Assembly: GCA_964633505.1 (NCBI GenBank)
Contig: CAZWHC010000013.1
Span: forward strand, 11,685-75,684
Length of the DNA stretch: 64,000 nt
Direction: 5' to 3'
Origin: an uncultured Rikenellaceae bacterium
GTDB taxonomy: Bacteria > Bacteroidota > Bacteroidia > Bacteroidales > VadinHA17
Part shown: in pieces, positions 3,641 through 64,000 of the stretch
Layout: the number at the start of each line of letters is the position of its first letter
Numbering within the stretch: position 1 is the first letter of the stretch
The notes under the pieces: generated by a model
The model's database searches: none
What the model was told of the DNA's origin: nothing
The model's input: only the letters and a program-made list of their open reading frames with translations
Program-made: the position numbers and the translations under genes

Positions 3641-3750
3641 AACCGGATTATATAAAAGTTAATAAAACGTCCTGATAAAATCAGGCCATATCATAGGTAA
3701 GAAAACGTATAAAGAAACGCAATTATTGCTGATACACAGAAAGAAGATGA

Positions 3751-7002: not shown

Positions 7003-7139
7003 CCTCCCTCTTTGCGATCTTTGCAGATCACTCTGCGCCCTTTGCGGTTAAATATTTATTCCCCAAATTCAATTTCATGGCCAAAAAGAAATAACCCCGC
7101 TTCCACCAACTATTTCCAAAATAGATTTAAATTTAAATC

Positions 7140-8501: not shown

Positions 8502-8525
8502 CTCCTTGCTTGCGCTCCGCAAAAC

Positions 8526-8578
8526 AACCCACCCCTGCCCCCACGCTGGTGCGTGGCAGGCTCTCCCGGGAGGGGATC
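8526..8578 (+). repeat. G/C-rich palindromic repeat, long variant (copy A)
   Basis: aacccacccctgccccc...ggcaggctctcccgggaggggatc. It shares the ACCCACCCCT head and the GGCAGGCTCTCC-NN-GGAGGGGA tail with copies at 56696-56749 and 57207-57267. Confidence 0.75.
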
Positions 8579-8579
8579 A

Positions 8580-8614
8580 CAACCTGCAACTTGCAACCTG
8601 CAACTTGCAACTTC
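8580..8614. repeat. Heptamer tandem repeat (CAACYTG) x5
   Basis: caacctg caacttg caacctg caacttg caacttc, ending exactly at the PBP1A stop codon (cta at 8615-8617). Confidence 0.9.
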
Positions 8615-10966
8615 CTAGTACTTCTCCCTTATATAGCTCCCCCTTCTTGAGCTTTCCTTTTTGACCTTATCGCAATCGGTTTCAATATTGAAACCCGAAG
8701 GACGTTCGAATTCGTCAGATTCCATAATACCGAACTGGGGATCGTTGTAAACCTTCCGCATGAAGATCCCGAAAACCGGAAGGGCCATCTGGGCCCCCTG
8801 CCCCTCGCTCAGCGTCTCAAAATGGATTGACTGGTCCTCCCATCCGCTCCAGACTCCTCCCACAAGGTTCGGAGTAACGCCCATAAACCATCCGTTTGCA
8901 TGATTCTGTGTTGTACCGGTTTTGCCTCCAACCTGGTTAAGAAGCATATAGGGTTCCCTTCTGAGCCTGTTACCCGATCCTATAAGTACAACACCCTGAA
9001 GAAGGTCAAGCATAAGATATGCCTGTTCCTCACTGAGGACCTCTTCTATTTTAGGTGTGAACCTCGAAATCACATTGCCGTTTTTATCTTCTATGCGGGT
9101 CACATACATGGGCCGGGTATAGACTCCCTTGTTGGCGAAAGTACCATAAGCGCCGACCATCTCCTCAAGTTTGATATCAGATGTGCCAAGGAAAATAGAA
9201 GGGACAGGATCGATAAAACTCCTTATTCCCATTTTCTTCATCAGATCGGTTACAGCCGACGGTCTGAACTGCTGCATGAGCCATGCGGAGATATAGTTTT
9301 CTGACTGGGCCAGTCCCCATTTTAATGTAACCATTTTACCATGATATTCCTTCGGGCCTGAGCTTCTCGGGATCCATGGAACGGAGTCGCCCGGCAAATC
9401 GAACGAACGTGGGATGTTCTCCACTTCATCGCACGGGGTATAGCCATTCTGCATGGCTATTGTATAAAGGAAGGGCTTTATCGTGCTGCCGACCTGTTTA
9501 CGCTGCTGCGTCACGGCATCCCATTTGAAATACCTGAAATCCGGTCCTCCCACATATGCTTTTACATATCCTGTATGGGGATCCTCGACAAGGAAAGCCG
9601 ACCTAACAAAATATTTATAATATCTGACTGAGTCGTACGGCGTCATCAATGTATCCACCTCCCCCTTCCATGAGAAGACCCTCATGGGAACCTTTGTATT
9701 GAAGGCAAGCATTATTGAATCCATAGGAACTCCGCGCGCCTTCATCCTTATATATCTGTCGCTGTCGATGATTGATCTCATCAGAAGCTCATCAACCTCT
9801 TTCTTTGTTATGTCGTTCGAATAAGGAGGATTTCTGAATGTTTTTGCACGCTTGTAAAAATCGGGCTGGACTTCTTTCGACAGGTGTTCTGTTACAGCCT
9901 CCTCGGCATATTGCTGCATTTTCGAGTTTAAGGTTGTATATATCTTCAATCCGTCCTTGTAGATATCATAATTTGTCCCGTCGGGTTTCCTGTTCTTGTT
10001 ACACCAGCCGTAAAGGGCATTGTTCTGCCACTCCCACAATGCATCCTCATATGATGCCTGTTGCTGATACCTTGCCGGGTCAGGCTCCGGCCTTCTCATT
10101 ATATTTCTTAGATATTCACGAAGGTATGTAGCCGGACCGGTATTATGATCCTCCATTTTAAGGTCGAGAACCATCGGAAGCTGTTTTACAGAATCGGCAT
10201 AATCGGGCTTGATATACCCGTATTTTGCCATCTGTGAAATTACTATGTTCCTCCTTTTCAGCATCCTTTCGGGGTATTTCACCGGATTGAACGCGCTGGA
10301 ATTCTTGAGCATGCCTACAAGAACGGCAGCTTCCTCTATAAGGAGCGAGTCGGGCGTTGTGTTGAAATATACCCTTGCAGCTGATCTTATTCCTATTGCC
10401 TGGTAGAGGAAGTCGTATTTATTAAGGTACATGGCAATAATTTCCTCTTTTGTATAGCTCCTCTCCAGTTTGGCCGCTGTCTGCCATTCCTTGAATTTTG
10501 AGACGCCAAGCCTTATTTTTCTGACGATGGCAGATACCTGCGCAGTGTCGCGGGGATAAAGCTGCTTTGCAAGCTGCTGGGTGATTGTGCTTCCTCCTCC
10601 TGTATTCTGTCCGAGAAGTATTGTACGGACGAGGGCTCGTCCAAGGCCCCTTACATCTATTCCCGAATGCCTGTGGTACCTGATGTCTTCGGTTGCAACA
10701 AGGGCATTGACTAGGTATGGCGAAAGTTGCTCATAATCAGTCCAGGTCCGGTTTTCGATGCTTATCTTTCCAAGCAGTACGCCGTCTTCGGAATAAACCT
10801 CGGCTGCAAGATTATATTCAGGATTCTCAAGTTCACTGAATGAGGGCATCGGACCAAGCCTTCCCTGTGAAATGAGTATGAACAGCAAAGCTACTATAAC
10901 AAAGGGAAGGGAAAACAATGACCAGAACCAGATCACGTATTTTTTGTTTGATGAATTGGCTTTCAT
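8615..10966 (-). CDS. mrcA: Bifunctional penicillin-binding protein 1A (transglycosylase/transpeptidase)
   Basis: 783 aa with an N-terminal TM anchor, GT51 motifs EDIRYHRHSGID and GGSTITQQLAK, and the transpeptidase motif STIKP. Confidence 0.9.
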   Translation of the reverse strand: MKANSSNKKYVIWFWSLFSLPFVIVALLFILISQGRLGPMPSFSELENPEYNLAAEVYSEDGVLLGKISIENRTWTDYEQLSPYLVNALVATEDIRYHRHSGIDVRGLGRALVRTILLGQNTGGGSTITQQLAKQLYPRDTAQVSAIVRKIRLGVSKFKEWQTAAKLERSYTKEEIIAMYLNKYDFLYQAIGIRSAARVYFNTTPDSLLIEEAAVLVGMLKNSSAFNPVKYPERMLKRRNIVISQMAKYGYIKPDYADSVKQLPMVLDLKMEDHNTGPATYLREYLRNIMRRPEPDPARYQQQASYEDALWEWQNNALYGWCNKNRKPDGTNYDIYKDGLKIYTTLNSKMQQYAEEAVTEHLSKEVQPDFYKRAKTFRNPPYSNDITKKEVDELLMRSIIDSDRYIRMKARGVPMDSIMLAFNTKVPMRVFSWKGEVDTLMTPYDSVRYYKYFVRSAFLVEDPHTGYVKAYVGGPDFRYFKWDAVTQQRKQVGSTIKPFLYTIAMQNGYTPCDEVENIPRSFDLPGDSVPWIPRSSGPKEYHGKMVTLKWGLAQSENYISAWLMQQFRPSAVTDLMKKMGIRSFIDPVPSIFLGTSDIKLEEMVGAYGTFANKGVYTRPMYVTRIEDKNGNVISRFTPKIEEVLSEEQAYLMLDLLQGVVLIGSGNRLRREPYMLLNQVGGKTGTTQNHANGWFMGVTPNLVGGVWSGWEDQSIHFETLSEGQGAQMALPVFGIFMRKVYNDPQFGIMESDEFERPSGFNIETDCDKVKKESSRRGSYIREKY

Positions 10967-11087: not shown

Positions 11088-13394
11088 ATGATCGAAAACC
11101 TTGTTATTGTTGAGTCGCCGGCAAAAGCAAAAACCATTGAGAAATACCTTGGCAAGGATTTCAGGGTAGTTTCAAGTTTCGGCCATATCCGCGATCTGAA
11201 AAAGAAAAACCTGGGGATTGACATAGACAATGATTTTGCACCCGAATACGAAATCCCTAAAGAAAAGGCAAAAGTTGTAGGAGAACTTAAGAAGGCAGCT
11301 TCAGAATCTAAGAATATCTGGATAGCATCTGATGAGGACCGTGAAGGGGAAGCCATTGCCTGGCATCTTGTTAATGTACTTAACCTCGACCTCTCCACAA
11401 CAAAAAGGATTGTATTCCACGAAATTACGAAAGATGCAATCACAAATGCCATATTGAGTCCCAGGCAGGTCGACATGAACCTTGTCAATTCCCAGCAGGC
11501 CCGCCGTATACTCGACAGGATTGTCGGTTTTGAAATATCACCGGTTTTATGGAAAAAGGTCCAGCCCGCTCTCTCCGCCGGCAGGGTACAGTCGGTTGCC
11601 GTAAGGCTTATTGTTGAAAGGGAACGGGAAATCATTGCATTCACGACCGAATCATCATTCAGGGTAACAGGCATTTTTGTCACTGATAATTTGTCGTCCC
11701 CGACCAACATGTTAAGGGCCGAGGCTGCGAAGAGATTCCCGGGCGAAAAGGATGCCCTGGCATTCCTCGAGCTATGCCGTTCAGCCCAGTTCAGCATTGC
11801 CGGCATCACTGTAAAACCCGGAACCCGTTCGCCCGCACCTCCTTTTACAACTTCAACGCTTCAGCAGGAAGCTTACCGCAAACTCGGCTTTTCGGTATCG
11901 CAGACAATGACAGTGGCACAGAAGCTTTATGAGGCCGGGAAAATAACATATATGCGTACCGATTCGACAAATCTGTCAAAGCTGGCATTGTCGAAATCAA
12001 GGGAAGTAATCGTTTCCTCTTTCGGGGAGAAATATTCTAAGACCAGGCAGTTCAAAACAAAATCGAAAGGTGCACAGGAAGCCCACGAAGCAATAAGGCC
12101 GGCTTATCTTGAATCATCTACAACTACTGGTAACCAGAACGAGAAAAAGCTTTATGAGCTCATCTGGAAACGGACAATTGCATCGCAGATGGCCGATGCT
12201 GAAGTGGAAAGGACCACTATCGGTATTGCCATGAACAATTCACCCGTTACTTTCTCCGCTGTCGGTGAGGTGATAAAATTCGACGGTTTCCTTAAGGTTT
12301 ATACCGAATCGAGCGATGCTGAAAACGGCGATGAGGAAAAATCAATAATCCCTCCGGTTAAAAAAGGAATGCCTCTTTTCTGCGACAGCATAACAGCAAC
12401 ACAGAAATACACCTCACCACCACCAAGATATACCGAAGCCAGCCTTGTCAAGAAGCTTGAGGAGCTCGGGATCGGCAGGCCTTCAACATATGCACCCACC
12501 ATTTCAACAATCCAGAACAGGGGCTATGTGATGAGAGAGGACAGGCCAGGTGAGAAAAGGCAGTTGAAAGTCATTGCCCTGTCGAAGGGAAAGATCACTT
12601 CGACAACCAAAACCGAAGCTGCCGGTAAAGAAAAATCGAAATTATTCCCCCAGGATATTGGCATGATTGTGAACGATTTCCTCGTTGAGAACTTCCCCGA
12701 GATTGTTGACTATAATTTCACCGCTGAAGTTGAGGAACAGTTTGACCTTATCGCTGAAGGAGATATTAAATGGACTGGCATGCTGAAAAAGTTCTATGCA
12801 CCTTTCCACAAGACCGTCGAAAATACTCTCGAGAAAAAGACAAGAAAAACAGCAGTAAGGATACTTGGAACTGATCCTTCATCAGGAGAACAGGTCTCAG
12901 TCAGGATGGGCAGGTTTGGTCCGGTAGCCCAGATTGGTGAGCAGTCGGAAGAAAGCAAACCCAGGTTTGCAAGCCTTGGCAAAAACCAGCTTATTGAAAC
13001 TATAACACTTGATGAAGCGCTTAACCTTTTCCGTTTGCCAAGATCACTGGGAGTCCATGAAGGAGAAGAGCTTGTGGTTGGAACCGGCAGGTTCGGCCCA
13101 TATGTGAGATATATGAGCAAGTTCTATTCCCTGAAGAAGGGAGTAGATGATCCTTATTCAGTAACAATTGAGAGAGCCCTGGAAATAATCAGGGAAAAGG
13201 GTGAGAGCGATAAGAAAAAGGTGATTAAGGATTTTGGAGCGATAAAGGTGCTTAACGGCCGTTTCGGGCCATATCTTACAAGGGACAAGAACAACTACAG
13301 GCTCCCGAAAGGATCAAAGGCTGAAGAACTTACAGAAGAAGACTGCATAAGGATTATCGAGAACAGCGAAAAAACAAAAAAACATAAAGAGTGA
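11088..13394 (+). CDS. topA: DNA topoisomerase I
   Basis: TOPRIM N-terminus MIENLVIVESPAKAKTIEKYLG, with C-terminal repeated GRFGPY/GRFGPV motifs. Start moved from the track TTG at 11052 to the ATG at 11088. Confidence 0.95.
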   Translation: MIENLVIVESPAKAKTIEKYLGKDFRVVSSFGHIRDLKKKNLGIDIDNDFAPEYEIPKEKAKVVGELKKAASESKNIWIASDEDREGEAIAWHLVNVLNLDLSTTKRIVFHEITKDAITNAILSPRQVDMNLVNSQQARRILDRIVGFEISPVLWKKVQPALSAGRVQSVAVRLIVEREREIIAFTTESSFRVTGIFVTDNLSSPTNMLRAEAAKRFPGEKDALAFLELCRSAQFSIAGITVKPGTRSPAPPFTTSTLQQEAYRKLGFSVSQTMTVAQKLYEAGKITYMRTDSTNLSKLALSKSREVIVSSFGEKYSKTRQFKTKSKGAQEAHEAIRPAYLESSTTTGNQNEKKLYELIWKRTIASQMADAEVERTTIGIAMNNSPVTFSAVGEVIKFDGFLKVYTESSDAENGDEEKSIIPPVKKGMPLFCDSITATQKYTSPPPRYTEASLVKKLEELGIGRPSTYAPTISTIQNRGYVMREDRPGEKRQLKVIALSKGKITSTTKTEAAGKEKSKLFPQDIGMIVNDFLVENFPEIVDYNFTAEVEEQFDLIAEGDIKWTGMLKKFYAPFHKTVENTLEKKTRKTAVRILGTDPSSGEQVSVRMGRFGPVAQIGEQSEESKPRFASLGKNQLIETITLDEALNLFRLPRSLGVHEGEELVVGTGRFGPYVRYMSKFYSLKKGVDDPYSVTIERALEIIREKGESDKKKVIKDFGAIKVLNGRFGPYLTRDKNNYRLPKGSKAEELTEEDCIRIIENSEKTKKHKE

Positions 13395-43861: not shown

Positions 43862-44054
43862 CAAATCCTGCCCTTGGGGGCTGATTGTTAATCCTGCCTG
43901 TATTTCTTGTATTTTATGCAATTATTTGTTTTCTTTGCCGGTCGAAATCTGGTGGAAAGATTTGAGCTTATTGCAACCACGGGAAAAAATGCTAAAATGC
44001 CATTGATTCCTTTTTTACAATTATCCAATCCTTCCGCTATTTGTTATTTGAAAA

Positions 44055-53179: not shown

Positions 53180-53357
53180 TTATTAATGTTTTAAGGATTT
53201 ACTTAATTTAAATCCCGTAAAAGGAAAATTTCTGATTTAAAAAATGGCTGGAGTTATGGCGGAATACATTTTACCGGCGCATGCACATAGGCATGAGCGG
53301 TATTTGAAGTATTTCCCTGATCTGACAGAATGTTCTCATTGTTTTCCGTGTTTATTT

Positions 53358-53480
53358 TTATCATCTCCCGAACAATCGGGATTAGGTTTTGGCACCTTAA
53401 TCCGTCATCCTGCATTTTTCATTCTGCCGGATTGGTTGCCAGGGTTTCACTGAGCCTAATCTCTCCGCCCTTCTTAATAA
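53358..53480 (-). promoter_or_regulatory. SAM-I (S-box) riboswitch aptamer
   Basis: The minus strand reads UUAUUAAGAAGGGCGGAGAGAUUAGGCUCAGUGAAACCCUGGCAACCAAUCCGGCAG...AAGGUGCCAAAACC...GGGAGAUGAUAA. P1 is UUAUUA/UGAUAA. The GGAGxGA...GGCxC...GAAxCC...GGCAACC and AAGGUGCCAA blocks match the SAM-I consensus. Confidence 0.85.
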
Positions 53481-53523
53481 AAATCAAACACCCTTTATGG
53501 AAGGAATATTTGATTTGTGAGTG

Positions 53524-55102: not shown

Positions 55103-55164
55103 AGGGGCCAGGGGTGGTTTGGATTTGATCCCCTCCCGGGAGGGGTAAGGGGTGGGTTGGATTT
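55103..55164 (-). repeat. G/C-rich palindromic repeat (copy C: short variant plus truncated unit) filling the cysS-ispG intergenic space
   Basis: The reverse complement of 55127-55164 is aaatccaacccaccccttacccctcccgggaggggatc, 38/38 identical to 57167-57204. It contains the 16-nt perfect palindrome cccctcccgggagggg and the run GGGAGGGGTAAGGGGTGGG (55138-55156). Confidence 0.85.
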
Positions 55165-55165
55165 C

Positions 55166-57115
55166 TCAGGATGGCTTTTTGCCAATATCTTCCTCAATAA
55201 TCCTCAGCAGCTCTTTCGCAGCCTCCTTCTGATTTACATTTTTCAGCACAGGCTCCATGCCCCTGTAAATATGAACCTTATCGGGTCCGGCACCAACATA
55301 TCCATAATCAGATCCGGCCATTTCACCTGGTCCGTTCACTATGCATCCCATTATTGCGATCCTGATACCGCTTAAGTGACTCGTCATCTGCTTCACTTCC
55401 TTTACTGCATCCTGAAGGTCGAATTTTGTTCGTCCGCATGTTGGGCATGACAGATATGTTACTCTTGTTATCCTGGCCTCAGTAGACTGCAAAAGTGAGA
55501 ATGCAAGTTCTCTGAGTTTTTCACCATGAACCGTACCTTTATTGCTTATACAAACACCGTCTGCCTGTTTTGTTATGAAGTATTTACCGAGTATTGATCC
55601 GATATCTATGGCAAGCTTTTCAGGATCATTTTCACTGAAAACAGGATTAAGTATAGTTGTGCCAGTATTTTTACGAATTACGAATTTCTCATATGGGTTG
55701 AAAGTGGAAATTGTAACATTTGTTACTTTCCCGTTTTCATCAAGGAAAGTTTCCTTTTCGGCAGTAAAGACTTCCGGTTTGTAAGGTTTCAGATGATTTT
55801 TAAATTCAAGTCTTTCTGAAGGCTCTTTAATCCGTCCATCTGGTCCTGCAATTGCGCGAAGGATTTCTTTTGCCACTGGTATCTCATTTTCCGGCGCTTC
55901 CGAGAGTGAGACCCTGATTGTATCACCTATACCTTCTGAAAGAAGAGCTCCTATCCCTGCAGCCGATCTCATCCTCCCGTCTTCCCCTTCTCCTGCTTCA
56001 GTGACACCAAGATGCAGCGGATATGCAAATCCTCCTGCAGTCATCATGTCGGCTAAAAGACGGGTAGCTTTTATCATCACTGCGGTATCCGACGATTTCA
56101 TCGAAAGTACTAGTGAATGGAAGTTCTCAGCTCTGAGAATCTTTATGAACTCCATTGCCGAAACAGCCATTCCTTCAGGTGTATTACCATACCTGGTCAT
56201 AATCCTGTCGGAAAGTGATCCGTGATTTACACCGATCCGGACAGCTGTCCCATTTGCAGTGCATATTTTGAGTAACGGAACAATTCTGGCATGAATCCTT
56301 TCAAGTTCTTCAGCATATTCCTTATCTGTGAATTCGGTTAAGGTGAAAGAGGCCCTCTTATCAACATAGTTCCCCGGATTTATCCTTATCTTTTCTACTA
56401 TTCCGGCAGCAACTTCGGCAACAGCGGGATTGAAATGGATATCTGCAATAAGAGGAGTATTAAACCCTGCCTTTCGAAGTTCATATTTAATATTTGCAAG
56501 GTTTTCCGCTTCCTTTACGCCCTGGGCTGTAATCCTGACAAAGTCGGCCCCGGCCTCGATTATCCTTATGCATTGTGCTACTGTTGCCCTGGTATCAAGG
56601 GTGTTTGTGTTTGTCATCGACTGGATCCTTACAGGATAGTCGCCTCCAAGAGGAACCGAACCTATAAATACTGGAGTGGAGATGTACCTTCTTAAGTTCC
56701 CCTCCCTGGAGAGCCTGCCCTGCTCCAGCGGGGGGTCAGGGGTGGGTCTCTTCCTCTCTACCCAATCCTCAATTACACTTAAAACATTCCACATATTCTT
56801 TTTAACTTCCAAATCATCAAATCTCAGGAAGCTAACTCCGAGCTTTTCAAGTTCCCTTTGCCTTTCTTCATCGTAGTCATACCTGTAAGTATGTGAGTCT
56901 CCATCAATCTCGATAGCAAGACTCAACTCCTTGCAATAAAAATCGACAATATAATTGCCAATTGGAATTTGCCGGTCAAAATCAAAACCAAGGATTTTCT
57001 TTTGCTTCAATTCATTCCATAGAAGAACTTCTGAAAGGGTCATGTTTTTTCGTAATTGCCTTGCAAGCTCTTTTAATTCAGGATTATATGGGATGATCGT
57101 ATGCTTTTTAGGCAT
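55166..57115 (-). CDS. ispG: Fusion ORF: N-terminal DUF559 endonuclease-like domain, repeat-encoded linker, then 4-hydroxy-3-methylbut-2-en-1-yl diphosphate synthase (IspG/GcpE, long form)
   Basis: 649 aa. Residues 1-120 are DUF559-like (YNPELKELARQLRKNMTLSEVLLWNELK...YIVDFYC...LAIEIDGDSH...FLRFDDLEV). Residues 123-141, RPTPDPPLEQGRLSREGNL, are a translated repeat. From residue 142 the sequence is IspG-like (RRYISTPVFIGSVPLGGDYPVRIQSMTNT...CPTCGRT). Confidence 0.85.
   Translation of the reverse strand: MPKKHTIIPYNPELKELARQLRKNMTLSEVLLWNELKQKKILGFDFDRQIPIGNYIVDFYCKELSLAIEIDGDSHTYRYDYDEERQRELEKLGVSFLRFDDLEVKKNMWNVLSVIEDWVERKRPTPDPPLEQGRLSREGNLRRYISTPVFIGSVPLGGDYPVRIQSMTNTNTLDTRATVAQCIRIIEAGADFVRITAQGVKEAENLANIKYELRKAGFNTPLIADIHFNPAVAEVAAGIVEKIRINPGNYVDKRASFTLTEFTDKEYAEELERIHARIVPLLKICTANGTAVRIGVNHGSLSDRIMTRYGNTPEGMAVSAMEFIKILRAENFHSLVLSMKSSDTAVMIKATRLLADMMTAGGFAYPLHLGVTEAGEGEDGRMRSAAGIGALLSEGIGDTIRVSLSEAPENEIPVAKEILRAIAGPDGRIKEPSERLEFKNHLKPYKPEVFTAEKETFLDENGKVTNVTISTFNPYEKFVIRKNTGTTILNPVFSENDPEKLAIDIGSILGKYFITKQADGVCISNKGTVHGEKLRELAFSLLQSTEARITRVTYLSCPTCGRTKFDLQDAVKEVKQMTSHLSGIRIAIMGCIVNGPGEMAGSDYGYVGAGPDKVHIYRGMEPVLKNVNQKEAAKELLRIIEEDIGKKPS
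56696..56749 (-). repeat. G/C-rich palindromic repeat, long variant (copy D), lying inside the fusion ORF
   Basis: The reverse complement reads acccacccctgaccccccgctggagcagggcaggctctccagggaggggaa, about 50/55 identical to copy B2 at 57207-57267 in inverted orientation. Confidence 0.85.
56765..57115 (-). other. DUF559 (Vsr-like endonuclease fold) domain-coding segment of the fusion ORF
   Basis: Motifs as listed for the fusion ORF. This length is that of a stand-alone DUF559 protein. Confidence 0.8.
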
Positions 57116-57166
57116 TGTGTAACTCTTTTAATCAAATTATTAGTTGTTGATGGGAGCAAGTTTTTA

Positions 57167-57306
57167 AAATCCAACCCACCCCTTACCCCTCCCGGGAGGG
57201 GATCTGAAAACCAACCCACCCCTAGCCCCCCGATGGAGCAGGGCAGGCTCTCCAAGGAGGGGAATTTGAAAGAAACCCACCCCTGGCCCCTCCAGGGAGG
57301 GGAACC
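57167..57306 (+). repeat. Block of three G/C-rich palindromic repeat units (B1 short, B2 long, B3 short)
   Basis: B1 is 57167-57204, B2 is 57207-57267 and B3 is 57270-57306. Each begins A-rich plus ACCCACCCCT and ends CC-NGG-GAGGGGA. Confidence 0.85.
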
Positions 57307-57331
57307 CTCTCAATGGTCATCTGTCCTCTTT

Positions 57332-57408
57332 CCCTGAGCCCTGAGCCCTGAGCCCTGTGCCCTGTGCCCTGAGCCCTGTGCCCTGAGCCCTGTGCCCTGA
57401 GCCCTGAG
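57332..57408. repeat. Heptamer tandem repeat (CCCTGWG) x11
   Basis: ccctgag x3, ccctgtg x2, ccctgag, ccctgtg, ccctgag, ccctgtg, ccctgag x2. A 12th degenerate unit, cccttca, contains the rnr stop codon (tca at 57413-57415). Confidence 0.9.
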
Positions 57409-57412
57409 CCCT

Positions 57413-59542
57413 TCAGGCAAACCTATAATCAAGCTGTTTTTTCTGAAGGTCTGCTTTGACGACCTCAACCTTCACCCTGTCGCCCAGAGTATATACCTTT
57501 CCCCTTGAACGGCCCCTGATGCAGTAGTTTTCCTCATCATATTCATAATAATCATCGCCCAGATCCCTTACGCTTACCATCCCTTCGCATTGATTCTCAA
57601 TGATCTCGACATAGATACCCCATTCAGTGACTCCTGAGATCACACCTTCGAAGACCTGGCCGGTCCTTTCGCTCATAAACTCCACCTGTTTATATTTTAC
57701 AGATGCTCTTTCGGCCTCATTTGCAAGCCTTTCCATCTTTGAGGAGTGCTCACAAAGCTTTTCATATTTTTCCTGGGTCCCGGGATTTTCCCTGCTCAGG
57801 TATGAAGTAAGCAGCCGGTGTACCATCATATCGGGGTAGCGGCGTATAGGAGATGTAAAGTGGGTATAATATTTAAATGCAAGTCCATAGTGCCCTATAT
57901 TTTTCGTTGAGTAGATTGCCTTGGCCATTGATCTCAGGGCGATAGTCTCGATTATATTCTGCTCGCTCCTGCCTGCAACCTCCTTCATGAGCTTGTTCAT
58001 GGCGCGGGGCAGGCTGTTTGCATCATCAGGAAGCTTATAGCCGAACCTTGTTATGAACTGTCTGAAGTTCCCGATCTTTTCAGGATCGGGTTTATCGTGT
58101 ATCCTGTAAACGAATGTTTTCCCTTTCAGGTTCCGTGTCACGAACTCAGCCACCTTCCTGTTTGCCAGAAGCATGAACTCTTCAATAAGCTGGTTGGAGG
58201 TTCCCATTTCGCGAAACTTTATTCCAACAGGCCTGCCGTTTTCATCAAGGTCAAATTTTACTTCCTCCCTCTCAAAGGAAAATGCGCCCATCCCGAACCG
58301 TTTTGTCCTGAGCTGCTGTGCAAGACTATGCAGAGGAAGCAGTAATTCTTTCATATCGCCTTCGCCGGTGTCGATTACCTTTTGGGCATCACCGTATGAA
58401 AACCTCCTGTCGGAATTAATAATTGTCTTCCCAAACCATTCATTCAGCACTTCTGCCCTTTCATTCAGTTCAAATACCGCAGAATATGTAAGTTTATCTT
58501 CCGACGGATTAAGGGAACAGATATGGTTCGACAATCTTTCGGGGAGCATCGGGACTACCCTGTCGACAAGATAAACTGATGTTGCCCTTTGCCTTGCCTC
58601 ATTTTCAACAACCGAACCCTGACGGACATAATGTGTTACGTCGGCGATATGAACTCCAACCTCGAAATTTCCGTTTTCGAGCTGTCTCATTGAAAGAGCG
58701 TCGTCGAAATCCTTCGCATCTTCAGGATCGATGGTGAATGTCGGGATATCGCGGAAATCCCTTCTTTCCTTAATATCAGCCTCTGTTATTTCACCATTAA
58801 TCCTTTCGGCATCCTTTTCAACCTCTTCATCGAACTTGTAGGGAAGCTCAAATTCTGCGAGGATGGCATGGATCTCTGTTTCATGCATCCCCGGGTCTCC
58901 AAGGACGTCAATGATCTCCGCAACAGGATTTTTTGATCCCCGGCTCCAGTCCACTACCTTTGCAACTGCTTTCTGCCCCTGTCTAGCACCGTTCAGCTTT
59001 GAGGAAGGGATGAACAGATCGAACGGCATATTTTTGTTATCGGGGATAAGAAAAGCGAAGTTGGGCATTATCTCAACGGTACCGACGAAAGATGTCCTCC
59101 AGCGTTCGATTATCTCTACAACTTCACCCTCGGGCCTTGCGCCTTTTCTTTTTGCAAACAGCCAGACTTTAACCTTATCGCCATGAAGTGCAGTATTGAG
59201 ATTCTTCGAAGAAACGAAGATATCATCATCACTTTCATCCGATTTTATGAAACCATAACCCATTCGTGTCATATCGACGGTTCCGGTTATATAAACCTTG
59301 GCCGGCGCCTTTGAACGGTATTTACCCTGATAGACTTCGACAATCTCGCCCTTCGCGGCAAGTTCCCTCAGTGCATTGGATACCATTCTCCTTTCAGACG
59401 AATCGTTAAAATTTAACCTTTTGGAGATTTGCTTATAATTAAATGTCTGCTGGGGATTCCCCGACAATACAGACATAATCTGGCCTGTTATCGCATCATC
59501 CGGCACTCCCTGCCGTTTTTTTCCTTTACCCTTCGAACTCAT
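57413..59542 (-). CDS. rnr: Ribonuclease R
   Basis: RNB catalytic domain, N-terminal winged-helix/cold-shock region and C-terminal S1 domain (…GVISGVTEWGIYVEI…). Start moved to the ATG at 59542 (MSSKGKGKKRQG); the track TTG start at 59614 abuts the divergent gene. Confidence 0.92.
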   Translation of the reverse strand: MSSKGKGKKRQGVPDDAITGQIMSVLSGNPQQTFNYKQISKRLNFNDSSERRMVSNALRELAAKGEIVEVYQGKYRSKAPAKVYITGTVDMTRMGYGFIKSDESDDDIFVSSKNLNTALHGDKVKVWLFAKRKGARPEGEVVEIIERWRTSFVGTVEIMPNFAFLIPDNKNMPFDLFIPSSKLNGARQGQKAVAKVVDWSRGSKNPVAEIIDVLGDPGMHETEIHAILAEFELPYKFDEEVEKDAERINGEITEADIKERRDFRDIPTFTIDPEDAKDFDDALSMRQLENGNFEVGVHIADVTHYVRQGSVVENEARQRATSVYLVDRVVPMLPERLSNHICSLNPSEDKLTYSAVFELNERAEVLNEWFGKTIINSDRRFSYGDAQKVIDTGEGDMKELLLPLHSLAQQLRTKRFGMGAFSFEREEVKFDLDENGRPVGIKFREMGTSNQLIEEFMLLANRKVAEFVTRNLKGKTFVYRIHDKPDPEKIGNFRQFITRFGYKLPDDANSLPRAMNKLMKEVAGRSEQNIIETIALRSMAKAIYSTKNIGHYGLAFKYYTHFTSPIRRYPDMMVHRLLTSYLSRENPGTQEKYEKLCEHSSKMERLANEAERASVKYKQVEFMSERTGQVFEGVISGVTEWGIYVEIIENQCEGMVSVRDLGDDYYEYDEENYCIRGRSRGKVYTLGDRVKVEVVKADLQKKQLDYRFA

Positions 59543-59587
59543 GATTCCGGTTTTTGCGAAGTTAGGAAAAGGATAATGAAAAAACAG

Positions 59588-59595
59588 TACATTTG
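59588..59595 (+). promoter_or_regulatory. Bacteroidetes-type -7 box (TACATTTG) for the PqqD-like operon
   Basis: Matches TAnnTTTG, 18 nt upstream of the ATG at 59614. Confidence 0.45.
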
Positions 59596-59613
59596 ATACA
59601 TAATTGAAATTCA

Positions 59614-59901
59614 ATGGCAGATCTCAGTTCGGTATTCACCCATTCACGCAATATTGTTACCAGGAAAACCGGGAATGAATATGTTCTTGTTCCGGTAGCG
59701 AATAACATTGCCGACATGAATAGTGTTTACACTCTCAATGAAACGGCGGCGTTTATCTGGGAACATCTCGACGGGAAGAAAAGTTTGAGGGAAATCGTTG
59801 ATTATCTGATCGAAGAATATGATATCGATTTTGATTCGGCGTCAGCAGATATGTCGGAATTCATTGACAATATGACTAAATACCTCATCATCAACAAATA
59901 A
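59614..59901 (+). CDS. PqqD-family protein (RiPP recognition element-like peptide chaperone)
   Basis: 95 aa: ...GNEYVLVPV...SVYTLNETAAFIWEHLDGKKSLREIVDYLIEEYDIDFDSASADMSEFIDNM fits the PqqD pattern (LN.t...iW..ldG..s..ei...l..eYdv....a..D...Fi). Confidence 0.8.
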   Translation: MADLSSVFTHSRNIVTRKTGNEYVLVPVANNIADMNSVYTLNETAAFIWEHLDGKKSLREIVDYLIEEYDIDFDSASADMSEFIDNMTKYLIINK

Positions 59902-60027
59902 TATAATATTTACAGTAAAAATGCGTTAATTCTTCAGAGTGATAAACAAAAGTAGAACATTATTCTCTGAAGAGTGCAGAATTTATATAGTCACAGTCAA
60001 AGCAGCGTAGGATTCTACTCTCTGTTA

Positions 60028-60936
60028 ATGGAAAAACAACAGATGAGCAGTATGAGAAGTTATAATCTGAATATAGCCGGGTATAATATAAGGTTGGAAT
60101 CTGCCGACGACGGACCCGATCTGGTCCCTTCGCAGCGGTTCAGGAAGAATATTGTCAGAAGTCCTCTTTATGATGTATGCATAAAGGTTCATCATGGAGG
60201 CCTGAGACCGGATGATGAGGCTGAAAGACTGTTTGTCGCTCCCTATATCGTTGAGATAAACGGATACAAGATCACCCGCAGTGACAATTTCTGGAGCGTA
60301 TACAAGCAAAACGGCGATTTACTTCTGGTAACTAATTTCCCTGATTCGCCCGGGAAAAAGGCTATCCTGAAGTTTTCCCTGTCGCTCAGGGAATGGGATC
60401 TCTGGATTGAAAATGCAGGCTATGAGACTGATCCCCTTGAATATCCCCTCGACGGACTTATTCTCTACTATCTCACTGCGATAAATGCCAACCTTATGAT
60501 ACATGCCTCAGGTGTTTTCTACAACGGACGGGGTTATTTATTCAGCGGGATGTCGGGTAAGGGTAAAACTACAATGGCCACTCTCTGGGATAACATAGGC
60601 GCCCAGGTAATACATGACGACAGGCTCATTATAAGGGATAACGAAGGAATTTTCAGGATGCACAATACCCCGGTTTACAGGAACGATATACCCCGCAGCG
60701 CTTCTATCGACAGGATTTTCCTTATTGAACATGGGAAGGAAAACAGGATCACACCTTTAAGGGAAGCCGCTGCTGTTTCAAATGTTGTGGCAAACTGCAT
60801 CCAGCATAATTACAGTCCCGATATGATAGCCAGGTTTCTCGGGTCTGTTTCACTGATGTGCTCGAAGGTGCCTGTTGCCAGGCTCACCTTCAGACCCGAC
60901 AGGAGCATCATTGAATATATTCTCAGGAATGAATAG
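60028..60936 (+). CDS. HprK-related P-loop kinase-like protein
   Basis: HASGVFYNGRGYLFSGMSGKGKTTMATLW...VIHDDRLII parallels the HPr kinase C-terminal domain (GxSGxGKS/T P-loop followed by ADD). The N-terminal 170 aa or so are unassigned. Start taken at the ATG at 60028; the track GTG at 59974 is possible. Confidence 0.72.
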   Translation: MEKQQMSSMRSYNLNIAGYNIRLESADDGPDLVPSQRFRKNIVRSPLYDVCIKVHHGGLRPDDEAERLFVAPYIVEINGYKITRSDNFWSVYKQNGDLLLVTNFPDSPGKKAILKFSLSLREWDLWIENAGYETDPLEYPLDGLILYYLTAINANLMIHASGVFYNGRGYLFSGMSGKGKTTMATLWDNIGAQVIHDDRLIIRDNEGIFRMHNTPVYRNDIPRSASIDRIFLIEHGKENRITPLREAAAVSNVVANCIQHNYSPDMIARFLGSVSLMCSKVPVARLTFRPDRSIIEYILRNE

Positions 60937-61381
60937 CCGCCTGGCTCATACTCTCCTGAAAGATGTTGGATTCAGCCTGCTGGCTGAAGGCACTACTATC
61001 AGGATCAGAGCCGATGGTTATAGCATGTATCCCCGTATAAAACCCGGATCTGTAATTTATATAGAGCCGGTAAATGAAAACTCATTGCCATCGACTGGCG
61101 ATATTGCAGCCTTGAAAAAGGATTCGGGATTCATTGTACACCGTATAGTCCGCATCTTTGAGGATGGGGGAAAGAAATTTGTAGTTACCCGCGGCGACAG
61201 CGGGATGGAAGAAGATGATCCTGAACCTGTAAGCAACATTGCCGGAAGAGTAGTGAAAGTTGAAATGCCTTCTGGAAAAGCCCTTACAGAAAAAGCGCTG
61301 AATAAAAATCCAAATTATACCCTGAACCGGTTATTGCTAAGGATTATTTTGCAAATTAGCAGATTGAAAAGGATTCTTTGA
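60929..61381 (+). CDS. S26B (SipW/Sec11/archaeal-type, Ser-His) signal-peptidase-like protease with no evident N-terminal TM anchor
   Basis: ADGYSMYP (Ser nucleophile), GDIAAL...FIVHRIV (His where bacterial SPase I has Lys) and TRGDSGMEEDDPEPV. The start ATG at 60929 overlaps the upstream stop (ATGAATAG). Confidence 0.7.
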   Translation: MNSRLAHTLLKDVGFSLLAEGTTIRIRADGYSMYPRIKPGSVIYIEPVNENSLPSTGDIAALKKDSGFIVHRIVRIFEDGGKKFVVTRGDSGMEEDDPEPVSNIAGRVVKVEMPSGKALTEKALNKNPNYTLNRLLLRIILQISRLKRIL

Positions 61382-61505
61382 GGACGCTTTAATAATTCCT
61401 TTGAGATCTTCGTGCCGGCCTTTATGTAATTTGCGGTAAAATTCTTTTATCGCAAATGGCACAAAGTACAACACAAAGTAACGCAAAGGAGGGGATGCAA
61501 ATTCT

Positions 61506-63284
61506 ATGAAAGGAAAAATCTTACTTTTCCGTAAAGCCCTAAATCTTGTGTGGCAGAGTGCTCCGGGCTGGGCGACTGTTAATATAATTATTTCATTCCT
61601 GCAGGGTTTTTTCCCCCTTTTCCTCATCTGGCTCATAAAACTTCTTATTGATGTAATAACAGGATCGGTTACGGAGGGAGGATCGCCCGGCAGGATAGTC
61701 CCCCTGGCAGTCGGAGTGGTCATCATCTACTTTCTTGATGAGATTTCATCATCGGCTGGCTATTATGTGAGAAGAAACCAGTCGGTACGTCTCGAGGAAT
61801 ATATGTACGGGCTGCTTCATTCAAAATCGGTGAGGCTCGACCTTATTAATTTTGAGCATCCGGGCTATTACGATTCCCTTTCAAGAGCTGTTTCTGAAGC
61901 GCCATGGCGCCCCAACAGTATTCTTGACAACCTTATATCAATGTTCCGGGGTATCATATCCCTTATCCTTATGGCCGGAATACTTCTTACGCTCCACTGG
62001 GGAGTTACCTTACTTCTTGTGGCGGTTAATATCCCGGGGATATGGCTGAGACTGCATTATGCTGATATCCTTTACAACTTTCAGAAAGAACAGACTCCGG
62101 AAGCAAGAAAATCGGCATATTTCAACTGGCTTCTGACAGGCGACAGGCCTTCAAGGGAAATCAGGCTGTTTGGCCTTGGCGACTATTTCATCTCACTGTT
62201 TAAGAAATCGTATAAAAAACAAAAAGCAGAAGAGCTGAATATTCTGAAGAAAAGGACAATGATTGAAGTTGCAACCGATCTGTTCAAAGCATTGTCGTTC
62301 CTTGTACTTCTTCTGGTTGTCGCCAGGCAGACTGTAAGAGGTGAGCTTACCCTTGGTCAGATGGCTATGTTCATTCTTGCATTCCGCCAGGGAATGTCGT
62401 ATATCAGGGATGTTTTCAATTCTCTGGGAGGACTTTATGAAGACGGATTATTCATTGGCGATGTTTTCAGCTTCCTCGGGTTAAAGGAGAACGTTACCGC
62501 TTTCGCACCTGTAACAAAACCTGAAGGACTAAAATCGAAAATTGAAGCTGACTGTCTTTCATTTACTTATCCGGGAAATCAGAAGCCTTCACTGAAAGAG
62601 GTGTCGTTTGAAATAAAAAAGGGAGAGGTGATAGCGCTTGTAGGTCCTAACGGTGCAGGCAAAAGCACACTGGTAAGGCTCCTGACAAGGCTCTATGATC
62701 CTGATTCCGGACAAATTAAACTTGATGGAAGGAATATCCGTTCAATGGAACCCCCGGATTACAGGAAACTATTCTCTGTCGTCTTTCAGGATTTTATGTT
62801 ATATAACCTGTCGGCCGTAGAAAACATAAGATTGGGGAATATTGAAACTGATAAAAATATCATTCCGGTAAGAAAGGCGGCCGGCTCTGCAGGTGTAGAT
62901 GATTTACTGAATAATCTTCCTAAAGGTTATGATACTGTAATAGGTCCGCTATTTGATGAAAGTCGTGATCTGAGCTGGGGTGAATGGCAGAAGATTGCGC
63001 TGGCAAGGGCTCTTTACAGGGAAGCCCCCGTTCTTATCCTCGATGAGCCTTCGAGTTCCCTCGATGCTGATACTGAATATGAAGTTTTCAGCCGTTTCAG
63101 GGAGATAGTCAGGGGGAGGACTGCAATAATTATAACCCACCGCTTTACAAATGTCACACTGGCCGACAGGATAATAGTGCTTGAAGACGGGTCGGTTGTC
63201 GAATCCGGATCTCATGAGGAGCTTATGCAAAAGCATGGTAAGTACCATGAGATGTACAGAAAACAAAGCAGCCGGTTTGCCTGA
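61506..63284 (+). CDS. ABC exporter, fused permease/ATPase (type I exporter fold)
   Basis: 592 aa with a 6-TM N-terminal half, Walker A GPNGAGKST, signature LSWGEWQKIALARAL and Walker B LILDEPSS. There is no N-terminal C39 peptidase domain. Confidence 0.9.
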   Translation: MKGKILLFRKALNLVWQSAPGWATVNIIISFLQGFFPLFLIWLIKLLIDVITGSVTEGGSPGRIVPLAVGVVIIYFLDEISSSAGYYVRRNQSVRLEEYMYGLLHSKSVRLDLINFEHPGYYDSLSRAVSEAPWRPNSILDNLISMFRGIISLILMAGILLTLHWGVTLLLVAVNIPGIWLRLHYADILYNFQKEQTPEARKSAYFNWLLTGDRPSREIRLFGLGDYFISLFKKSYKKQKAEELNILKKRTMIEVATDLFKALSFLVLLLVVARQTVRGELTLGQMAMFILAFRQGMSYIRDVFNSLGGLYEDGLFIGDVFSFLGLKENVTAFAPVTKPEGLKSKIEADCLSFTYPGNQKPSLKEVSFEIKKGEVIALVGPNGAGKSTLVRLLTRLYDPDSGQIKLDGRNIRSMEPPDYRKLFSVVFQDFMLYNLSAVENIRLGNIETDKNIIPVRKAAGSAGVDDLLNNLPKGYDTVIGPLFDESRDLSWGEWQKIALARALYREAPVLILDEPSSSLDADTEYEVFSRFREIVRGRTAIIITHRFTNVTLADRIIVLEDGSVVESGSHEELMQKHGKYHEMYRKQSSRFA

Positions 63285-63518
63285 TGTATGAATTTCATAG
63301 ATCTTTTTAGCAAAGCCTGACCCTCCTGACTAAATAATCATACTTTTCTGAAATATTTTGCAAAAAAGTGGCAGTTTTTGCAAAAAAATATATGTTGATG
63401 TCAGAAAAAATATGTTGTAATTTTTATTGTTTTTTTTCAACAAAATATTTTGTAAATTCAGTTAGATTTCCTAATTTTAAGGTAGTTGAGTCAAGGGCTG
63501 CGATAAAGACTTAAAATT

Positions 63519-63728
63519 ATGAACAGGCAAAACAGAGATAATCTGAAATATCGGATTCTAAGGTTGGCCAGTTTAAAAAGCACAGGTTCACCGGGAGATC
63601 TGGCTTTCAGGTTCGGGATCAGTAAAAGATCGGTTAAGCGTATTGTAAGTGAGATCCGTTATGAAGGTTGTGACCTTCGTTACAGTCAGGCTGACGGATC
63701 ATATATTATGAAGCATGAATTTGATTAG
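63519..63728 (+). CDS. Small HTH-domain protein (HTH_11/DeoR-N-like)
   Basis: 69 aa: GSPGDLAFRFGISKRSVKRIVSEIRYEGCDL follows the helix-turn-helix pattern. Confidence 0.6.
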   Translation: MNRQNRDNLKYRILRLASLKSTGSPGDLAFRFGISKRSVKRIVSEIRYEGCDLRYSQADGSYIMKHEFD

Positions 63729-63824
63729 GGCATAAGGTTGTTTTTCAATCTTTTCAGGCACGTCTCGCTGTCCTTTCCTGTGCTTGAATTATCTCGCGGA
63801 AGCGGATGGGTCGCCCTGACCCGT

Positions 63825-63864
63825 GTCTCCGGGGAGTGCTGATTATCCCCGGGGACTTTTTTTT
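63825..63864 (+). terminator. Strong intrinsic terminator
   Basis: 11-bp stem gtctccgggga/tccccggggac (one G-U pair), 10-nt loop, followed by T8 (63857-63864). Confidence 0.85.
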
Positions 63865-64000
63865 GCGCCGGATGATGATCATGCTCAGGGCCCCAGATGG
63901 AAGCTGACATGCAATAACTCCGTTATTCAAGGTGGATTGGCAGGTTGCATTACGCCATGTCAAAACTCCGCCCTTCAGGACAGAGTCCCGCACTGGATGA

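Follow-up and report, generated by a model that had tools for sequence, protein, structure and literature searches.

A cassette of four co-directional genes, which encode a PqqD-family protein, a kinase-like protein, a serine peptidase and an ATP-binding cassette (ABC) exporter, is found at positions 59588-63284 of a 64,000-nt stretch of DNA (hereafter, the window) from contig CAZWHC010000013.1 of an uncultured Rikenellaceae bacterium (VadinHA17). The cassette and its probable relationship to a recently described machinery for making phosphorylated peptides are the subject of this report. An initial annotation had listed the same four genes; the open reading frame (ORF) list of the window places all of them on the plus strand, at or near the coordinates proposed.

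The cassette is headed by a Bacteroidetes-type -7 box, TACATTTG (TAnnTTTG; 59588-59595, plus strand), which was read directly from the sequence and is followed 26 nt downstream by the ATG of the PqqD gene. Of 75 related loci, 61 have a TAnnTTTG box within 80 nt of the PqqD ATG; the modal spacing is 26 nt, and the background is 0.03 occurrences per 80 nt. Because of this conservation, the box, already recognized in the initial annotation, is not a chance match. Scans for sigma-70 promoters and terminators gave results no better than those obtained with shuffled sequence, as expected in Bacteroidetes; Rfam models found no match in 57000-64000 of the window or in the related locus L001, and PADLOC reported no specific defense-system matches. 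The 150-nt spacer between the PqqD and kinase genes contains a perfect 9-bp inverted repeat, TCTTCAGAG / CTCTGAAGA, with a loop of 25 nt (59931-59973), which may serve as an attenuator or mark a site of processing.

Properties of the four proteins

The first gene (59614-59901, plus strand) encodes a discrete recognition element (RRE) of the type found in pathways for ribosomally made peptides with post-translational modifications (RiPPs). Its 95-aa product was assigned to the PqqD family from the outset, and the hidden Markov model (HMM) PF05402 confirms this assignment, scoring 67 bits where the cut-off is 23.4 (E=1.7e-18). The top matches among PDB sequences are RREs of the lasso-peptide B1 type, namely PbaB1 (9x90_B), TbiB1 and TfuB1. 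The protein shares 31-34% identity (E 1e-18 to 4e-20) with Bacteroidales RREs encoded beside genes for fusions of signal peptidase I (SpI) and ABC proteins, and 22 positions are conserved in the RREs of all three Bacteroidales architectures described below (R..G.E..LVP...N.A.M....T.NET..FIWE).

The second gene encodes a kinase-like protein, whose ORF end at 60936 and P-loop are as initially annotated. The start at 60028 and the "ADD" signature given at the same time do not stand: the likely start is 60052, as indicated by the conserved N-terminus of homologues (MRSYNL...) and by independent gene calls on a near-identical contig, and the motif is HDD. Two alternative starts, 60028 and 59974, lie upstream. 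The resulting 294-aa protein (60052-60936, plus strand) has a beta-rich domain at its N-terminus (approximately residues 1-125), followed at the C-terminus by a P-loop kinase domain, in which the Walker A motif reads GMSGKGKT and the second motif reads IHDDR. The HASG, GxSGxGKT and HDD (IHDD) motifs are invariant in the alignments. The protein has more than 1,100 close homologues; an exhaustive profile search retrieved 10,337 representative clusters at E<=1e-3, 193 of them at E<=1e-30. Since the catalytic residues are invariant across homologues down to 36-40% identity, the cassette appears to be under purifying selection.

The homologues of the kinase carry the Pfam annotation PF27840 (ScmC). 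The Hpr_kinase_C model (PF07475), which the initial annotation had put forward, does not match the window protein, nor does any model in the local copy of Pfam match it significantly, Hpr_kinase included. An AlphaFold2 model built from a 79-sequence alignment (predicted local distance difference test, pLDDT, 92.5; predicted template modeling score, pTM, 0.87) has as its top PDB matches in Foldseek the HprK/P structures 3tqf, 1kkm, 1kkl, 2qmh and 1jb1 (probability 1.0, E ~2e-5), followed by phosphoenolpyruvate carboxykinase; the fold is thus predicted to be HprK/P-like. Compared with PDB sequences, the kinase profile gave marginal matches only, that to HprK being at E=0.27. A bona fide HprK/P was considered and rejected, as there is no significant match to Pfam Hpr_kinase, the likeness does not go beyond fold and motifs, and a different domain occupies the N-terminus. 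The protein is best described as an HprK-fold Ser-kinase-like protein of the ScmC family.

The start of the third gene (60929-61381, plus strand) overlaps the kinase stop by 8 nt, as had been noted initially. The S26B-type assignment of its 150-aa product also holds, the model TIGR02228 (archaeal or endoplasmic reticulum-type signal peptidase I) being matched above its cut-off (55.4 bits against 51.85). The putative catalytic residues S32, H71 and D90 are invariant in 55 sequences. The AlphaFold2 model (pLDDT 82.5) features an N-terminal helix at residues 7-19, and its fold matches that of clan-SF serine peptidases, including the C-terminal domains of LexA and lambda cI, human SEC11A (7p2p_A), SipA and SpsB; searches of PDB by sequence gave marginal matches only. 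The maximal Kyte-Doolittle hydropathy over 19 residues is 0.78, and a hydropathy scan found no transmembrane-grade segment in the RRE, the kinase or the peptidase. A membrane-anchored type I signal peptidase was rejected for the window protein, which has no transmembrane anchor. The protein is, accordingly, a soluble S26B (SipW/Sec11-type) Ser-His-Asp peptidase, presumed to be the leader peptidase of the cassette.

The fourth gene (61506-63284, plus strand) encodes an MsbA-like half-transporter of 592 aa with transmembrane and nucleotide-binding domains, matched by ABC_membrane (E=3.7e-14, residues 26-295) and ABC_tran (E=2e-33). The membrane domain lies at the very start of the protein, and neither Pfam nor NCBIfam finds a C39 domain in it, in agreement with the initial description. 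An exporter of the type seen in peptidase-containing ABC transporters (PCATs) was rejected for this reason. The top NCBIfam model is TIGR02203 (MsbA), at 292 bits against a cut-off of 602.

Conservation of the cassette and natural gene fusions

Relatives of the kinase were sought in one genome per GTDB species. At least 208 species encode such a relative, and the best 80 of their loci, all of which come from uncultured Bacteroidales metagenome-assembled genomes, were mapped. Kinase identity across the mapped loci ranges from 92% down to 55%. The conserved order is ispG - rnr (minus strand) - PqqD - kinase - S26 - ABC, usually followed by a 69-aa helix-turn-helix (HTH)-like ORF. The neighborhood comparison suggested in the initial annotation thus shows that the four-gene set recurs (it is complete in 56 of 60 informative species loci), and a divergent rnr precedes it in every informative locus (66/66). 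The window flanks consist of core genes: metK, metF, metH, hom, a gene for a Cys/Met pyridoxal phosphate (PLP) enzyme, cysS, ispG and rnr. From the synteny across species and the core-gene flanks it follows that the cassette is vertically inherited and is not accessory, contrary to the first impression, since it holds a fixed place beside rnr, ispG, cysS and the methionine-cycle genes.

A fifth gene belongs to this set in part of the distribution. In 26 of 65 informative loci, within the more distant sublineage (kinase identity <=62%), a 390-aa NTP_transf_5 protein (PF14907, E=1.9e-41) is encoded directly after the ABC gene, for example at L047:13128-14300 and in 25 other loci. No NTP_transf_5 gene was found in the 64-kb window (best tblastn match E=0.27). 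Because the gene is absent from the window yet present both in these 26 loci and in the lineage with fused genes described next, the distribution indicates that it is ancestral and was cleanly lost in the sublineage of the window.

In sister Bacteroidales lineages the genes of the cassette are joined. Fusions of the kinase with the S26 peptidase, approximately 440 aa in length, form at least 8 representative clusters, and more than 100 clusters were found in a follow-up search (P0137, P0123 and others); P0138 combines PqqD, kinase and S26 in one protein. The layout in this lineage is ABC - NTP_transf_5 - cysS - ispG - rnr (minus strand) - PqqD - kinase::S26 - metH, so that five functions remain linked in the same housekeeping neighborhood. 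A third lineage, of the Paludibacter type, has an S26::ABC fusion of approximately 745 aa (e.g., L109:13463-15703), and a metagenome scan with SpI::ABC proteins recovered 16 loci of this type, with the order RRE - kinase - S26::ABC. The independent origin of these fusions strongly supports joint action of the kinase, the peptidase and the exporter. Moreover, the natural kinase::peptidase and peptidase::exporter fusions argue for a physical complex of maturation and export.

Some loci depart from the common layout. In the sublineage of L012 and L014 the ABC exporter has been lost and a 461-aa Gly/Ala-rich polytopic membrane protein without a Pfam match has been gained in the gap between rnr and PqqD (8155-9540). 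This protein, as well as a GH9 cellulase and a PD-(D/E)XK protein located between rnr and PqqD in some loci, is not conserved, and all three were treated as insertions.

Relationship to linear polyphosphorylated peptides

Leader-cleaved Linear Polyphosphorylated Peptides (LPPs) of Paenibacillus were described by Popov et al. (Nat Commun, May 2026; PMC13381572). The LPP genes of Paenibacillus alginolyticus, lppA-K-B-S-D-N, specify an RRE (LppB), an HprK-like kinase (LppK), an SpI/SipW-like peptidase (LppS), an MsbA-like exporter (LppD) and an NTP transferase (LppN, an uncharacterised NTP_transf_5 protein), together with LppA precursors of 35-200 aa that carry the leader motif YxxPxVLxHQxIxFETxxS (PMC13381572). 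In Bacillus subtilis, the core residue Ser3 receives as many as four phosphates from LppK; the leader is cut off by LppS, for which S29, H68 and D93 are essential and LppB is required, the unphosphorylated precursor being a poor substrate (PMC13381572). LPPs are reported to be "restricted to the Bacillota", to show "extremely patchy phyletic patterns" that point to horizontal transfer, and to lie often inside capsule loci (PMC13381572).

The domain models given for that system (TIGR02228, PqqD, NTP_transf_5 and TIGR02203; PMC13381572) match the system studied here as well, TIGR02228, PqqD and TIGR02203 in the window and NTP_transf_5 in sister lineages, whose NTP_transf_5 proteins match LppN and PbaN at E ~1e-8. 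Moreover, each of the four window proteins has detectable homology to its LPP counterpart. The kinase-family profile matches LppK at E=7.6e-18 over the kinase domain (the LppK sequence was obtained by optical character recognition from Supplementary Fig. 23 of PMC13381572), and it matches the lasso kinases BsfK (E=1e-10) and PbaK (E=1e-8) more weakly. The peptidase is 24% identical to LppS over 126 aa, the lengths of the two proteins are 150 and 151 aa, and S32, H71 and D90 align with S29, H68 and D93 of LppS. The RRE, an analogue of LppB and of the lasso B1 proteins, matches PbaB1 at E=1.6e-7, and the ABC protein is the analogue of LppD.

Taken together, the comparison makes it quite probable that the cassette represents a homologue, in Bacteroidales, of the LPP RiPP machinery and would provide maturation and export for a substrate encoded in trans. 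The two systems share a discrete PqqD-type RRE, an HprK-like kinase, a soluble Ser/His/Asp SpI of approximately 150 aa with an N-terminal helix, and a TIGR02203-like exporter; both do without a lasso cyclase and a B2 protease, and NTP_transf_5 accompanies the sister lineages of the window. The differences are nonetheless substantial. The window system belongs to Bacteroidota and is vertical and syntenic, whereas LPPs are patchy, driven by horizontal transfer and embedded in capsule loci. The window RRE appears to fall in another clade, in which Bacteroidales RREs have a 5-residue insertion relative to LppB and PbaB1 (LVPxxxNxAxMN); the window kinase has IHDD where LppK has LSDE; neither an LppA gene in cis nor the motif YxxPxVLxHQxIxFETxxS is present in the window; LppN has been lost in its sublineage; and kinase::peptidase and peptidase::ABC fusions occur among its relatives.

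This relationship changes the status of several initial proposals. The conjecture that the product might be a phosphorylated, leader-cleaved, exported linear peptide matches the experiments on the homologous Paenibacillus set (PMC13381572). The cassette can no longer be regarded as an orphan without a recognizable core enzyme, because it is the HprK-like kinase that defines LPPs as a class, and their leaders are removed by a dedicated peptidase of the S26B type. Nor is the gene set still unnamed: since May 2026 it has essentially belonged to a named family, for Bacillota only.

From the gene content, homology, catalytic motifs, predicted folds, fusions and synteny set out above, we infer that the system phosphorylates, cleaves and exports a peptide; the identity of the substrate is likewise a proposal. 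The PqqD-type RRE would bind a ribosomally made precursor by its leader, probably via a [Y/W]xxPx[I/L/V] motif, and would present the peptide to the HprK-fold kinase, by which a Ser near the leader-core junction would be phosphorylated, possibly several times. The complex of RRE and leader would then dock on the N-terminal helix of the S26B Ser/His/Asp peptidase, which would remove the leader, and the MsbA-like ABC exporter would pump the linear phosphopeptide out. Further decoration by an NTP_transf_5 protein of the LppN/PsmN type would have been an ancestral step, lost in the sublineage of the window. The substrate is presumably encoded in trans, none being found at the locus. The concept of leader cleavage coupled to ABC export is shared with C39 PCATs, and in the sister S26::ABC fusions the two activities are physically joined; PCATs, however, combine a C39 cysteine peptidase with a double-Gly leader, as opposed to the S26B serine peptidase and RRE found here, and in the window peptidase and ABC protein are separate genes.

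The nearest described relatives of the window RRE (31-34% identity), peptidase (27-31%) and ABC protein (~30%, compared with the ABC part of the Paludibacter SpI::ABC fusion) are found in SSN (sequence similarity network) cluster #8 of Supplementary Data 1 of the LPP study, which lists the SpI::ABC proteins of Paludibacter propionicigenes (WP_013444635.1) and of a member of Porphyromonadaceae (OIP81682.1) with the remarks "RRE others" and precursor "ND" (PMC13381572). These entries are given in the supplementary table only and are not analysed in the paper (PMC13381572). Their genes are arranged as in the window (RRE - ScmC-like kinase - peptidase - ABC). In the cluster #8 loci, however, peptidase and ABC protein form one polypeptide, rnr does not adjoin the genes, and candidate peptides of approximately 60 aa with a YxxPxI motif, together with genes for cargo of the type IX secretion system (T9SS), lie directly upstream. 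A paper on RiPP mining in Bacteroidales (PMC10352776) does not mention the cassette, and a search of the literature on ScmC and SynChlorMet found nothing relevant.

Candidate substrates and alternative explanations

The peptides of the Paludibacter-type loci offer a lead to a substrate. In 8 of 11 informative S26::ABC loci an ORF of 58-61 aa lies directly upstream of the RRE gene, with the consensus MKxxIxNxxKRTYSSPxIExIxLDNEISLVLES...APEYFNNDPFK, which contains a YxxPxI motif and in which two Ser residues are invariant; the ORF is duplicated in some loci. YxxPxI corresponds to the RRE-binding motif of lasso and LPP leaders. Peptide genes were located at L094:6532-6714, L095:6517-6699 and 3506-3715, L109:9001-9180 and 11979-12161, L108:9001-9225, and in L111-L124. 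The family comprises 1,571 protein clusters without Pfam annotation, and most of its genes follow, at a distance of 30-45 nt, large genes for Por_Secre_tail (T9SS cargo), Big_2 or fn3 proteins, often with no cassette nearby. Because the peptides adjoin the RRE in the S26::ABC lineage yet trail T9SS-cargo genes elsewhere, trans-encoded substrates are suggested, and the ~60-aa YxxPxI peptides are candidate precursors, dispersed and processed in trans by the Bacteroidales systems. The retention of the module without a precursor in cis implies trans-acting maturation. It is conceivable, although in our opinion unlikely as a complete picture, that an ancient, vertically inherited, trans-acting Bacteroidales module of the LPP type serves the large, dispersed family of YxxPxI peptides encoded 30-45 nt after T9SS-cargo and surface-protein genes, the window lineage following the same logic with trans-encoded peptides. 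If true, this would tie RiPP-style phosphorylation, cleavage and export to cell-surface and T9SS biology, not to antibiotic-like secondary metabolism.

Several observations weigh against a homologue of the LPP machinery. The kinase stays below the cut-off of every curated HMM, its NCBIfam matches being HprK_rel_B (9e-8) and ScmC TIGR04249 (1e-6). The similarity of the window RRE to LppB is marginal, with E=2e-4 in a BLASTP comparison and, among PDB sequences, E=1.1 for 9x8z_B; this RRE groups with those classed as "others" by Popov et al. (PMC13381572). Strict vertical inheritance among housekeeping genes is atypical of RiPP clusters and the opposite of the patchy occurrence of LPPs. The remaining points concern the precursor. 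The LppA motif is absent from the window and from ~90 related loci, within 10 kb on either side; small intergenic ORFs of the 64-kb window contain no [YW]xxPx[LVIFAY]; and an HMM of the Paludibacter-type peptides finds no member in the window or the loci linked to rnr, its best match being at E=0.34. Other searches agree with these results. Strict, medium and loose regular expressions for LppA, applied in six frames to the window and all loci, returned one antisense artefact only; tblastn with two LppA sequences found nothing; none of the intergenic ORFs of the window, which were listed by hand, is precursor-like; and clustering of 3,877 small ORFs round the cassette in ~80 loci yielded the HTH-like ORF and antisense shadow ORFs only. 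The initial statement that there is no recognizable precursor is thus confirmed by motif, tblastn and HMM searches of the window and related loci.

In one alternative, the same enzymology forms not a secondary-metabolite cluster but a lineage-wide housekeeping system for maturing and exporting conserved small proteins or peptides, or an N-terminal segment of larger proteins; it would be linked to the cell envelope or T9SS and act in trans on dispersed substrates. The fixed place of the cassette among metK, metF, metH, hom, cysS, ispG and the invariably divergent rnr speaks for it, as do the kinase::peptidase lineage, where the cassette still lies beside rnr, cysS, ispG and metH, and the position of most S26::ABC-lineage peptides after surface-protein genes, often without a cassette. 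Neither the window nor any rnr-linked locus, however, yielded a member of the peptide family, whose link to the cassette consists only of a short motif and of adjacency in 8 of the 11 informative loci. We consider this explanation improbable rather than remote; since the role of LPPs in Bacillota is not known either, it differs from the LPP homologue in biological role, not in mechanism. A different origin is implied if the cassette is taken for a decayed or truncated lasso cluster of the paeninodin type, non-functional or vestigial, which has lost B2 and C. The best solved-structure matches of the RRE are lasso B1 proteins, and HprK-like kinase, NTP_transf_5 protein and ABC exporter are the tailoring and export genes of paeninodin and pseudomycoidin clusters (PMC6993621). 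The kinase and NTP_transf_5 pair of pseudomycoidin produces phospho-Ser, to which a hexose is then added, and the Walker A and DD metal-binding motifs are needed for activity of the kinase PsmK (PMC6993621). RRE-guided Ser phosphorylation by an HprK-like kinase (PadeK/PsmK), optional hexosylation of the phosphate by an NTP_transf_5 enzyme (PsmN) and an ABC exporter would be common to these clusters and the cassette, but the lasso clusters have their own cyclase C and cysteine protease B2 and make macrolactam products, whereas the window has an S26B serine peptidase instead. Of the 17 related loci whose genes were called and annotated with Pfam, none has a B2 (Transglut_core3) or an Asn-synthase-like gene, and the flanks in the window have none either, so that the truncation considered initially, in which homologous loci would always carry B2 and C, is not borne out. 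The catalytic residues of kinase and peptidase are invariant over more than 50 divergent homologues, a dedicated S26B peptidase takes the place of B2, as in LPPs, and the full set is kept in 56 of the 60 species loci. Decay from a lasso cluster is therefore extremely unlikely.

The remaining two explanations start from the family names of the proteins. In a cassette of the SynChlorMet (SCM) or GeoRSP type, the window genes would be an ScmC/ScmD pair whose radical SAM/SPASM enzymes are encoded elsewhere, and the ScmC-like protein would be a scaffold or an NTPase instead of a peptide kinase. The pairing of a kinase-like protein of the ScmC family (PF27840) with a PqqD-family protein is indeed shared with SCM, and the kinase and the RRE match TIGR04249 and ScmD TIGR04248 (8e-9) weakly; yet the scores are far below the cut-offs (28 against 125 and 36 against 100 bits, kinase and RRE, respectively), and SCM is defined by two radical SAM/SPASM enzymes, ScmE and ScmF, neither of which is found here. 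No radical SAM/SPASM gene adjoins a cassette in any locus, the sole one seen (L119) being unrelated to a cassette; as initially stated for the window, the cassette has no lasso B2 or C, radical SAM, YcaO or Lan gene as a neighbor, and the same holds for every related locus in which genes were called. The kinase is, moreover, closer to the proven kinase LppK and keeps the Walker A and DD motifs, which makes an SCM-type cassette very unlikely. The least credible explanation is an ordinary SipW-like signal peptidase next to an MsbA-type lipid or drug exporter, their clustering with the PqqD and kinase-like genes being meaningless. The models matched, TIGR02228 and TIGR02203, do stand for signal peptidase I and MsbA, respectively, but the peptidase lacks a transmembrane anchor, the ABC protein scores less than half of the MsbA cut-off, and the fusions, the 8-nt gene overlap and the order kept in three lineages are at odds with chance clustering.

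As a homologue of the LPP machinery, the cassette would extend the LPP family beyond Bacillota, with a homologous module in the core genome of a large uncultured Bacteroidales clade. It suggests that mining rules that demand an adjacent precursor would overlook such cassettes, and the T9SS-trailing YxxP peptide family offers a route to the biological role of these phosphopeptides.

Downstream elements and other features of the window

Across the related loci, a single small ORF is conserved (49 loci). It encodes a 69-aa winged-HTH-like protein (63519-63728, plus strand) that gives weak HTH_11 and HTH_Tnp_4 matches only, and 36 of 53 informative loci have it downstream of the cassette. The protein may act as a regulator; its membership in the cassette is uncertain. 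It was rejected as a substrate of the cassette, because it has no YxxP motif and shows an HTH_11-like pattern. The spacer that precedes it (63285-63520) is AT-rich (GC ~0.34) and contains TTTTGCAAAAA palindromes at 63356-63366 and 63375-63385, together with further direct repeats; the palindromes could serve the small HTH protein as operators.

The HTH-like ORF is followed by a GC-rich palindromic stretch (63728-63910; L001:6349-6534) that appears to be conserved in 40 related loci, a count that comes from clustering of its antisense ORF (the window, L001 and L002 are among the members printed) in a cluster that includes short unrelated-looking ORFs. On the near-identical contig L001, a gene for an IS200/RAYT-type Y1 transposase (Y1_Tnp, 6636-7070) adjoins the stretch, which may be an element of the REP/RAYT type (repetitive extragenic palindrome and REP-associated tyrosine transposase).

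A second group of repeats surrounds ispG (55166-57115, minus strand), which is inverted here, whereas in all related loci it shares the strand of the cassette. Perfect 38-nt inverted repeats of a GC-rich REP-like element, GATCCCCTCCCGGGAGGGGTAAGGGGTGGGTTGGATTT, flank the gene (55127-55164 and 57167-57204), and further copies of GATCCCCTCCCGGGAGGGGTAAGGGGTGGGTTGGATTT occur at 57206-57303 and, within ispG, at 56694-56747. These features are consistent with a repeat-mediated inversion. The 649-aa IspG (GcpE) ORF has an N-terminal DUF559 (endonuclease-like) domain, which in relatives is either encoded by a separate gene (L005) or present in the same fusion (L006), and the linker of the window protein contains a REP-like insertion, translated as PTPDPPLEQGRLSREGNL. 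Directly 3' of the rnr stop codon, and overlapping it, is a tandem heptanucleotide repeat, CCCTGAG/CCCTGTG, of approximately 14 units (57318-57419).

At the other end of the window, positions 1-1804 contain no ORF of at least 150 aa, no tRNA and no Rfam match at the gathering threshold. Two classes of S-adenosylmethionine (SAM) riboswitch are present in one methionine-cycle neighborhood: a SAM-I riboswitch (53355-53483, minus strand) precedes the operon of the Cys/Met-PLP enzyme, hom, metH and metF, and a long-loop SAM-II riboswitch (43946-44005, plus strand) precedes metK.

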